NCBI RefSeq assembly: GCF_017348835.2
Contig: NZ_CP071375.1
Source of the DNA: Escherichia coli
Lineage (GTDB): Bacteria; Pseudomonadota; Gammaproteobacteria; Enterobacterales; Enterobacteriaceae
Length of the DNA stretch: 64,000 nt
Strand: one strand, 5' to 3'
The position numbers and the translations under genes are program-made. Below are positions 34,827-53,410 of the stretch, piece by piece (position 1 is the first letter of the stretch; each line of letters starts with the position of its first letter). The notes beneath the pieces are model-generated. The model did no database searches, was not told where the DNA came from, and saw nothing but the letters and a program-made list of their open reading frames with translations.

Positions 34827-35378
34827 TTACAATTTTTTAATCATTCTGGCTGGATTACCGCCCACGACAACGTTGTCCGGGACATCTTTTGTGACAACTG
34901 CACCTGAGGCTACCACGACGTTATCACCAATGGTCACACCAGGGTTAATGACCGCGCGTCCGCCAATCCAGACGTTATTACCGATGGTGACGGGTTTCCC
35001 CAGTTCAGCACCGCTATTACGTGCTACAGGGTCGATGGGATGTGTTGCCGTGTAGATATGAACGCCTGGTGCCAACATACAGTTATCACCGATGCGAATA
35101 GGGCAGACATCAAGCATCACGCAATCGAAGTTGGCGAAAAAATTATTACCGAGAAAAATGTTATAGCCATAGTCACAGCGAAACGTTGGCTCAATATAAG
35201 CCTCTGTCACCTGACCGAATAAATCAGCGAGAATTTGCTGGCGTAATGTGTGCTCTTCCGCCAGGGAATGATTGTATCGGTGAATAAGCTGACGAGCGTG
35301 CAGGCGATCGCGAGATAACGTCTCATCTGCCGAGCGATACAACTCACCAGCAATCATCTTTTCTTTTTCTGTGCTCAT
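34827..35378 (-). CDS. maa: Maltose O-acetyltransferase Maa (hexapeptide-repeat family), 183 aa
   Basis: ORF-track full length; left-handed beta-helix hexapeptide repeats ([14 protein letters not shown]..., [25 protein letters not shown]). Confidence 0.93.
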
Positions 35379-35455
35379 TACTGACCTCCGGTTGCTGAAA
35401 ATGCGGCAACACAGTAAGACGAAAAGTCAGTGAAGAGAACGTTCCCATTACATCT

Positions 35456-35472
35456 GTGTGATAAAGATCACA
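35456..35472. promoter_or_regulatory. CRP-like site TGTGA-N6-TCACA upstream of maa
   Basis: Both consensus CRP half-sites with canonical 6-bp spacer read in sequence about 85 bp upstream of maa start; function inferred. Confidence 0.45.
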
Positions 35473-35549
35473 TAGGGTATGTCTTCATGGCGAAAAAGTA
35501 TAAAATTCTTAATAAACAGCCGGTTATAGCTCCGAAAGCGAATTATTTA

Positions 35550-35768
35550 TTAGCGAATAAATTTCCATACTGAGGAAGGGATCTTGTCGTACAGTTTATT
35601 CATGGTCAATTCGGCGAGGCGGTGATCTGCGGCTGAGTAAAATACCGCCAGTTCATTATCTGATAATTCGTATTTATTTTTCTCGATAACACGCTCCAGC
35701 GTGTCAATTGTCTGGCAACGACGTAAACGCATTAAATAATCGGTTTTCGTTAAAGGTTTTTCGGACAT
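35550..35768 (-). CDS. hha: Hemolysin expression-modulating protein Hha, 72 aa
   Basis: C-terminal 72 codons of ORF-track 35550..36014; start at [20 protein letters not shown] to match known protein. Confidence 0.92.
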
Positions 35769-35793
35769 ACTTCTACCCATGGTTGTAATAATT

Positions 35794-36168
35794 CTAACAA
35801 GATAAACTCGCAGGATTCTCTTTCGTCGCATTGACAAAACAACGGAATAGTCGATTACCTGACTTCCGCCATTTCTGAAGATCCTGCATATTAATACCAT
35901 AACTACTGAACAACATAAAGGTGTCATCCAGATATTCGTCGATCTGCTCAATGAGCTTATTGTCTTCATTATACTTAATTTTGTAATTAAGTGCGAAGGT
36001 CGCAATATGCTCAATCAGTTCATTCAACTGGAGGTTGATCGCCGAGGTTGGGTCGTTAACCCAGCCATGATTGCTTTCTTCAAGGTTTGCAAGGCAGTCA
36101 TGATACAGAGTTTCACAGAGAAACTTAAGCTGTGCGATATCATGTCTTTTGGGTGAGTATTCATCCAT
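35794..36168 (-). CDS. tomB: Hha toxicity modulator TomB (YbaJ), 124 aa
   Basis: ORF-track full length; [31 protein letters not shown]. Confidence 0.92.
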
Positions 36169-36670
36169 AACGCGTCCCCTTCTTAGCGGTTGAACTAACG
36201 GACACCTTTCGGGATGGAAAAAACTTACTGACCTGGACTTGCCCTCTCGTTTGTTAGCTTAACTATAAGCCACTCTTTGCAGGTTTTCATCGCATTATTA
36301 CGAAAAATTACAATTAGGAAGGAAGCGGGACAGGGCTCACTTTTTCATACTAGCACCAACCCGCAGCAGGTAAAAGCAGTTTGCTCGAACTGTTCATAAC
36401 ATTTCAGGATTATCGCCAGATGAAATTGGTGACACTAATACCAGGATTGCTCTGAATATGACGTAATAACCGAGGAATGAATAAAGAATTACCGCAAATA
36501 ATTAAGAATAGCCTCTAAATGATTATGGATTATTAAATCTATTAGCGCTACTTAATATAAATTAACTAACAATCAGTATTTTTTATGAATTTTATCCGTG
36601 GTTAATACTGGTTTTCGTATGAGATCCTGAGTTGGTGGTTCAATTACTCCTTAATGTTCGTAGGTTATGC

Positions 36671-36696
36671 ATAAAAAAGGCCGCTTACGCGGCCTT
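36671..36696 (-). terminator. acrAB intrinsic terminator (AAGGCCGC-GTAA-GCGGCCTT followed by T-run on minus strand)
   Basis: Perfect 8-bp GC stem directly after acrB stop; plus-strand ATAAAAAA gives the minus-strand U-tract. Confidence 0.8.
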
Positions 36697-36713
36697 AGTG
36701 ATTACACGTTGTA

Positions 36714-39866
<3,153 letters not shown>

Positions 39867-53279: not shown

Positions 53280-53410
53280 TCAAGCCGCAGCAGATCTGCT
53301 TTCGGGCAGGTCTGCTCATCCACCTCAGGCAATACCTCTCACAGCAATTAGTTCTTCTTCCTCACTTTTCCGCTACAATTATCAACAAGTTGAATCGATA
53401 AGAGGCGGTA

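Follow-up and report, generated by a model that had tools for sequence, protein, structure and literature searches.

The long AT-rich acrB-tomB intergenic region of Escherichia coli as a probable control region of the tomB-hha operon

Genes and base composition of the tomB-hha locus

The stretch of DNA analysed here (the window, 64,000 nucleotides) is a segment of the E. coli chromosome and is collinear with strain K-12 MG1655 at 98.6% identity. All positions given below are those of the window, and at the tomB locus they are converted to NC_000913.3 by adding 444540. Four genes of the window, maa, hha, tomB and acrB, correspond to b0459-b0462 of K-12 MG1655 and are all encoded on the minus strand.

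34827-35378, minus strand: maa (open reading frame list and K-12 annotation)
35550-35768, minus strand: hha, 72 amino acids, second gene of the operon (open reading frame list and annotation)
35794-36168, minus strand: tomB, 124 amino acids, first gene of the operon (open reading frame list and K-12 annotation)
36714-39863, minus strand: acrB (open reading frame list and K-12 annotation)

The gap between acrB and tomB (36169-36713) is 545 bp long, and RefSeq annotates nothing within it in K-12 or in the E. coli matches inspected. On the K-12 gene map no other intergenic region of the window is as long (the next, between cyoA and ampG, has 459 bp), which agrees with the first-pass annotation, where the longest non-coding stretch was placed upstream of tomB-hha. 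A DARS1 transposon insertion has been reported within this gap. A PdhR SELEX peak which is named after tomB was also considered, and it is actually located inside acrB. [quoted passage not shown]

The gap has a GC content of 38.3% in this window and of 37.8% in K-12, compared with 51.6% for the whole window, which confirms the AT-richness noticed at first reading. The profile along the gap has a trough of about 30% at 36400-36600. Among intergenic regions the gap is not an outlier, as the others in the window span 35.5-57.8% with a mean of 44-45%. Two protein genes, tomB (40.5%) and hha (40.6%), have the lowest GC content in the window, while acrB beside the gap has 53-54%.

The comparison with related loci drew on 80 of them, which encode relatives of TomB (89-100% identity) and come from about 20 genera of Enterobacteriaceae. 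The order acrB-gap-tomB-hha was kept in all 76 loci for which enough upstream sequence was available among the 80 fetched, and the gap was 435-559 bp long in all 76 that could be measured. Low GC content was also kept in each of the 16 genera measured: 35-39% in the gap and 39-45% in tomB and hha, beside 52-59% in acrB.

An anomalous composition of this kind could mean that hha-tomB and its AT-rich upstream DNA is a recent horizontal island, and the binding of the spacer by H-NS in genomic SELEX, together with gap, tomB and hha at 38-41% GC beside acrB at 53-54%, would fit such an origin. The fixed gene order in 76 of 80 loci from about 20 genera and the low GC content in 16 of 16 genera argue against it, and the K-12 annotation lists no integrase, IS element, tRNA or repeat near the locus. 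We consider a recent island very improbable. Because synteny and low GC are shared across relatives, any horizontal origin of hha-tomB would be ancient and would predate the family. Judged from composition and gene order, the locus is an ancient and maintained AT-rich island of the core genome rather than a recent acquisition. So the horizontal origin proposed in the first-pass annotation keeps weak support from the anomalous composition, and recent transfer is contradicted.

Promoter, CpxR box and leader of tomB-hha

Four features could be placed in the part of the gap next to tomB.

36297..36311, minus strand: CpxR box GTAATTTTTCGTAAT, of the form GTAAT-N5-GTAAT, directly upstream of the -35 hexamer (alignment and published list)
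36262..36290, minus strand: sigma-70 core promoter of tomB-hha, with -35 ATGAAA at 36290-36285, a 17-bp spacer and -10 TATAGT at 36267-36262 (promoter scan)
36169..36255, minus strand: 5' UTR of tomB, 87 nt (published TSS)
36233-36199, minus strand: conserved block within this leader (GGTCAGTAAGT..TCCATCCCGAAAGGTGT), which is followed by the Shine-Dalgarno (SD) sequence GGGG at 36179-36176

The CpxR box and both promoter hexamers are contained in a near-invariant block of 60 bp (36316-36254), and within the proximal 150 bp the sigma-70 promoter and the CpxR box are both almost invariant across 13 enterobacterial genera. The same hexamers have been published as a constitutive RpoD promoter of tomB-hha, identified by SELEX (PMC3946193). 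A ChIP-seq peak of sigma-S RNA polymerase also covers the core promoter, at window positions 36156-36351 after conversion from U00096.2 coordinates (+776).

The CpxR box does not vary among 13 genera, and of the 77 related upstream regions that are long enough to contain it, 74 have it. Its centre lies 49 bp before the TSS and its end 129 bp before the tomB ATG. The sequence GTAATTTTTCGTAAT is given letter for letter for tomB (ybaJ) in a published list of known CpxR sites, scored at -129 from the ATG (PMC9600279), and ybaJ is included among the Cpx genes in a list of EcoCyc response-regulator targets. In Yersinia, the ymoBA promoter fragment is bound by CpxR~P, and constitutive Cpx activity raises the activity of this promoter.

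Only a single TSS is listed for tomB in the published map, supported by 53 reads, with a UTR of 87 nt and an upstream 51-mer ending in TATAGTTAAGCTA (PMC3415461 supplement). It corresponds to the A at window position 36255, which is 7 nt past the -10 hexamer of the scanned promoter ATGAAA-17-TATAGT. Klebsiella ybaJ has a 97-nt leader behind the same -35 and -10 hexamers (PMC3415461), and an independent laboratory made the tomB/hha transcript from -89 (PMC4191395). The TSS data behind the single tomB start cover few growth conditions. From the size of the gap, the first-pass annotation had proposed a long regulated 5' leader, and it had itself named a single tomB TSS near the ATG as the observation that would speak against its proposal. 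This is essentially what the published map shows: one start, 87 nt before the ATG instead of some 500 nt. According to the literature, the proximal 150 bp thus contains an already known promoter which is activated by CpxR and has a short leader.

Short as it is, the leader might still act as a translational switch, in which the segment CCAUCCC (GUGUCC in Escherichia) pairs with the SD sequence and controls TomB, for example by temperature. Pairing of either segment with the SD region is possible in 92-94% of sequence-pair cells, compared with 18-79% for slid controls; the minimum-energy folds of most genera close the CCAUCCC/SD helix, and two substitutions in Escherichia make the second helix stronger and the first weaker. 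However, the anti-SD helices are invariant and no pair is changed on both sides, and the RNAalifold consensus fold (-5.9 kcal/mol) showed almost no covariation. Occlusion of the SD sequence was not above that obtained with shuffled upstream sequence (median unpaired probability 0.23 native and 0.30 shuffled), and its rank for individual species ranged from 0.03 to 0.9. The folding energy is also ordinary, with no extra stability over shuffles of the single sequence (z = -0.12). Such a switch is rather unlikely in our opinion, and with 87 nt, this z value and no two-sided pair changes, the leader does not have the properties of a long structured one. The conserved block 36233-36199 is not explained by the promoter and control-region reading which we prefer.

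The unusual length of the gap could also be due to a hidden gene, and the first-pass annotation had suggested an unannotated small RNA or small protein. For an RNA, no start on the plus strand was found in the gap: the Cappable-seq plus-strand list, checked with ffs and acrR as positive controls, contains no start between 479663 and 481459 of U00096.2. On the minus strand the tomB TSS is the only start listed (PMC3415461). A terminator scan of E. coli and Salmonella found no second terminator in the gap besides that of acrB. With E values up to 10, a search of the E. coli gap against Rfam gave only chance-level matches located on the acrB terminator (Trp_leader, 19 bits with a gathering score of 41; isrK, 14 bits with a gathering score of 50), and the gap of seven other genera had no match at the gathering threshold.

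For a protein, the longest open reading frame starting with ATG has 21 codons. The earlier statement that no frame exceeds about 20 codons thus holds for ATG starts, but fails for TTG starts, with which the plus strand has frames of 24, 40 (36277-36399) and 44 (36632-36766) amino acids. Conservation of the reading frames was judged on an alignment of 77 sequences. Among the 14 frames of at least 8 codons on both strands, no conserved small frame was found, each being intact in only 0-1 of the 76 related species; in the other 75-76, which include the sister species of Escherichia, they are disrupted by a shifted frame, a stop or the loss of the start codon. We also looked at an SD-like TAAGGAG before a TTG-initiated frame of 13 codons (36643-36602), which was rejected: the spacing from SD to start is 3 nt, the frame comes directly after a strong terminator in a fast-evolving segment specific for Escherichia, and it is kept in no relative. 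Though the long gap, this SD-like motif and the plus-strand TTG frames of 24-44 codons might be taken in favour of a hidden gene, a plus-strand TSS, a second terminator and an Rfam match in eight genera were all absent and every frame is broken in 75-76 of 76 relatives, so neither the small RNA nor the small protein was borne out. We judge a gene of either kind in the gap to be extremely unlikely.

Distal AT-rich DNA and the RcsB-box-like palindrome

The following features were found in the part of the gap next to acrB.

36667..36696, minus strand: intrinsic terminator of acrB, with stem AAGGCCGC/GCGGCCTT, loop GTAA and a T-run (terminator scan)
36594..36668, minus strand: segment of some 75 bp that comes right after the acrB terminator, alignable only in Escherichia
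36494..36593, minus strand: AT-rich distal DNA of about 30% GC with short conserved islands (composition and genus-level conservation profile)
36442..36455, minus strand: candidate RcsB-like pseudo-palindrome, TCAGAGCAATCCTG in E. coli (alignment)

The stem of the acrB terminator has 8 bp, six of them G-C pairs, and occupies 36696-36677, with the T-run following. The stem persists in 13 genera, where compensatory changes give pairs such as GGTCGC/GCGACC and GGGCCGC/GCGGCCC, and Salmonella carries the same element. The scan and the compensatory stem changes agree with the earlier description of the gap as bounded by this terminator, which forms its distal edge. The Escherichia-specific segment is unannotated, and 5421 of 5426 E. 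coli genomes cover at least 80% of it. Polymorphism is higher here than in its flanks (785 genomes at 90-95% identity). A repeat or mobile element as its source was rejected, as the segment is single-copy in the 5421 genomes.

In the alignment of the gap, short conserved islands lie amid a divergent and length-variable background, and from the alignment this would be the pattern that is expected of regulator sites. In the distal DNA the islands include an element like CTTATTGT at 36576-36569 and a TATAAT-like element at 36535-36529, and a further weaker island is located near 36411-36395.

The TATAAT-like island is conserved across genera, and it might belong to a second promoter far upstream, which under conditions not sampled would give a tomB mRNA with a leader of 300-450 nt. 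In Yersinia, ymoBA does have two TSSs, at -188 and -106, and the strongly conserved block inside the 87-nt leader could also be read in this way. On the other side, E. coli and Klebsiella have one tomB TSS each, and in E. coli and Salmonella only the known sigma-70-like site passes the scan. The TATAAT island has no usable -35 upstream, and the DNA that separates the distal islands from the promoter is unconserved and variable in length. Possible second promoters at the equivalent of Yersinia TSS1 or below the RcsB-like box (TTACCT-15-TAGTAT, and GATAAT at about 36414) were also inspected, and these are unconserved or variably spaced. A promoter far upstream is clearly unlikely, and transcription from the single start at 36255 remains the preferred reading.

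The spacer between tomB and acrB has been marked as an H-NS site by genomic SELEX (PMC3946193), and this evidence for E. coli is in vitro with a resolution of the whole spacer. From its AT content, the part at 36494..36593 is likely to be the one bound by H-NS. In a ymoA mutant of Y. pseudotuberculosis the ymoB mRNA rose 81-fold, which the authors read as negative autoregulation. The connection drawn in the first-pass annotation between AT-richness and silencing by H-NS and Hha is supported by the SELEX site in the spacer and by this increase without YmoA.

Another conserved feature is the pseudo-palindrome at 36455-36442, centred about 193 bp before the TSS. It is the only block of the distal region with several invariant columns, and these are precisely the bases of GA-N4-TC. 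Its form in other genera is TAAGAATATTCCTG, TAGGAATATTCCTA or TAAGAATATTCTTA, and about 70 of the 76 species carry a match to TNRGAN4TCY at the orthologous place. Its distance to the CpxR box and promoter varies between 85 and 187 bp among genera.

For the recognition of Rcs sites we first used TAAGAATATTCCTA as an RcsAB consensus. With it, no match within 3 mismatches was found at the box upstream of wza in K-12, where the best core match was TAAGAAATATCGCA. As this consensus missed the wza box, we relied on the published RcsB consensus, TN(G/A)GAN4TC(T/C)NA. Many genera match the latter exactly (TAGGAATATTCCTA, TAAGAATATTCTTA). The E. coli copy TCAGAGCAATCCTG agrees at all specified positions except the last, where E. 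coli and Salmonella end with G instead of A, and it is the most degenerate copy among the genera. Taken alone, the core match in E. coli is at chance level, as 17 were found in the window and 19 were expected. Across genera, the palindrome is the best conserved of the distal islands, and its invariant bases fall on the contact positions. Our search found no literature linking Rcs to tomB, ybaJ or hha. From this conservation we tentatively regard it as possible that the palindrome is a working site for RcsB or for RcsB with a partner. It may be the only new feature of the gap.

If this is true, tomB-hha would receive two envelope-stress inputs, Cpx beside the promoter and Rcs within DNA bound by H-NS. 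RcsB would then most plausibly act as a position-flexible anti-silencer of an operon that encodes an H-NS co-repressor; the activation of H-NS-repressed loci by BglJ-RcsB offers a precedent for anti-silencing. The operon would become a feedback node which joins envelope stress to genome-wide silencing by H-NS and Hha. Control of Hha would thereby gain the Rcs envelope-stress pathway, which would modestly extend the known regulation and would not be an element of a new kind.

Control of tomB-hha and comparison with known systems

Across enteric bacteria, virulence and biofilm genes are silenced by H-NS, and Hha modulates this silencing. Taking the features together, we think it very probable that the 545-bp gap serves to control the transcription of tomB-hha, with no separate RNA or protein gene in it. 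The acrB terminator would bound this region upstream, and transcription would start at 36255 from one sigma-70 promoter, giving the leader of 87 nt. The Cpx envelope-stress system would activate tomB-hha through the CpxR box directly upstream of the -35 hexamer, and the remaining AT-rich DNA of about 350 bp would bind H-NS. Because Hha is a partner of H-NS, the operon is most likely negatively autoregulated, a step that in E. coli we infer from the Yersinia orthologue. The RcsB-box-like palindrome might serve as a second envelope-stress input or as an anti-silencing site, as its conservation suggests.

The gap is an ordinary and largely already described promoter and control region. It means that the longest gap of the window is explained by published features, that is one promoter, a CpxR site, H-NS binding and a short leader. 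What keeps some interest is the conserved RcsB-like box and the conserved leader block.

The gene chiX in the same window, which encodes a small RNA, shares with the tomB-acrB gap a long intergenic setting in a well-studied genome. It differs by having its own promoter, terminator and Rfam family, all three of which are absent from the gap.

The tomB palindrome resembles RcsB and RcsAB boxes in its pattern, and its distal position has precedents, since validated boxes are located at -215 (osmB) and -161 (ytfK) from the TSS, and that of rcsA in Salmonella at -264.

Like ymoBA of Yersinia, a promoter of the H-NS/Hha-silenced type, tomB-hha has AT-rich upstream DNA, an H-NS site found by SELEX and a product that is an H-NS co-repressor. 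It differs from H-NS-silenced promoters of this kind in that its autoregulation in E. coli is drawn by analogy and in that the locus belongs, by its gene order and composition, to the ancient core genome and is not recently acquired.

The closest likeness of the promoter-proximal part is with promoters of the Cpx regulon such as cpxP, spy and yccA, which have, as tomB does, a GTAAx-N5-GTAAx box about 49 bp upstream of a sigma-70 TSS. The half-sites of tomB end in T (GTAAT) instead of A (GTAAA), and otherwise tomB is a Cpx promoter of this type.

Possible expression of hha apart from tomB

The genes tomB and hha lie in this order on the minus strand, and two published hha starts and one promoter-scan site were placed inside tomB:

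about 35784, minus strand, hha transcription start site (TSS) in the published map, 16 nt 5' of the hha ATG
about 35883, minus strand, hha TSS in the published map, 115 nt 5' of the hha ATG
35997-35968, minus strand, promoter-like site TTCGCA-18-TATAAT found with the promoter scan

[quoted passage not shown] The internal starts, the promoter-like site and the cleavage at the junction together mean that hha can be expressed apart from tomB.

Cappable-seq also gave two weak TSSs that run antisense to tomB on the plus strand, at about 35815 and 35899 (U00096.2 479579, score 2.2, and 479663, score 6.0).

Base composition and the tomB leader

Among the related TomB-encoding loci, GC content was compared in 16 genera, and tomB and hha had 39-45% while the flanking genes had 46-59%. 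Therefore, the low GC of both genes is maintained, rather than ameliorated, through the history of the family.

The tomB 5' UTR contained a block at 36199-36233 (GGTCAGTAAGT..TCCATCCCGAAAGGTGT) with 80-99% conservation across genera, for which the leader RNA analyses gave no supported structure and which has no known partner. Pairing analysis indicated that two substitutions in the Escherichia leader move the best pairing partner of the Shine-Dalgarno sequence from CAUCCC to GUGUCC.

Immediately past the acrB terminator there is a segment of about 75 bp (36594-36668) found only in Escherichia. Of 5426 E. coli genomes, 5421 carried it as one copy with at least 80% coverage. Its sequence varies to an unusual degree, and identity was 90-95% in 785 genomes.

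Neighbouring intergenic regions

The hha-maa intergenic region carries TGTGA-TAAAGA-TCACA at 35457-35472, a CRP consensus palindrome without mismatches whose distance to the downstream start codon of maa is about 86 bp; the same inverted repeat was also scored as a weak terminator in the terminator scan. A perfect TGTGA-N6-TCACA, with varying spacer, was found downstream of hha in half of the related loci (40/80).

The adk/hemH intergenic region (53280-53334) is about 105 bp shorter than that of K-12 (about 497821-497979), and this difference may be a variable repeat element.
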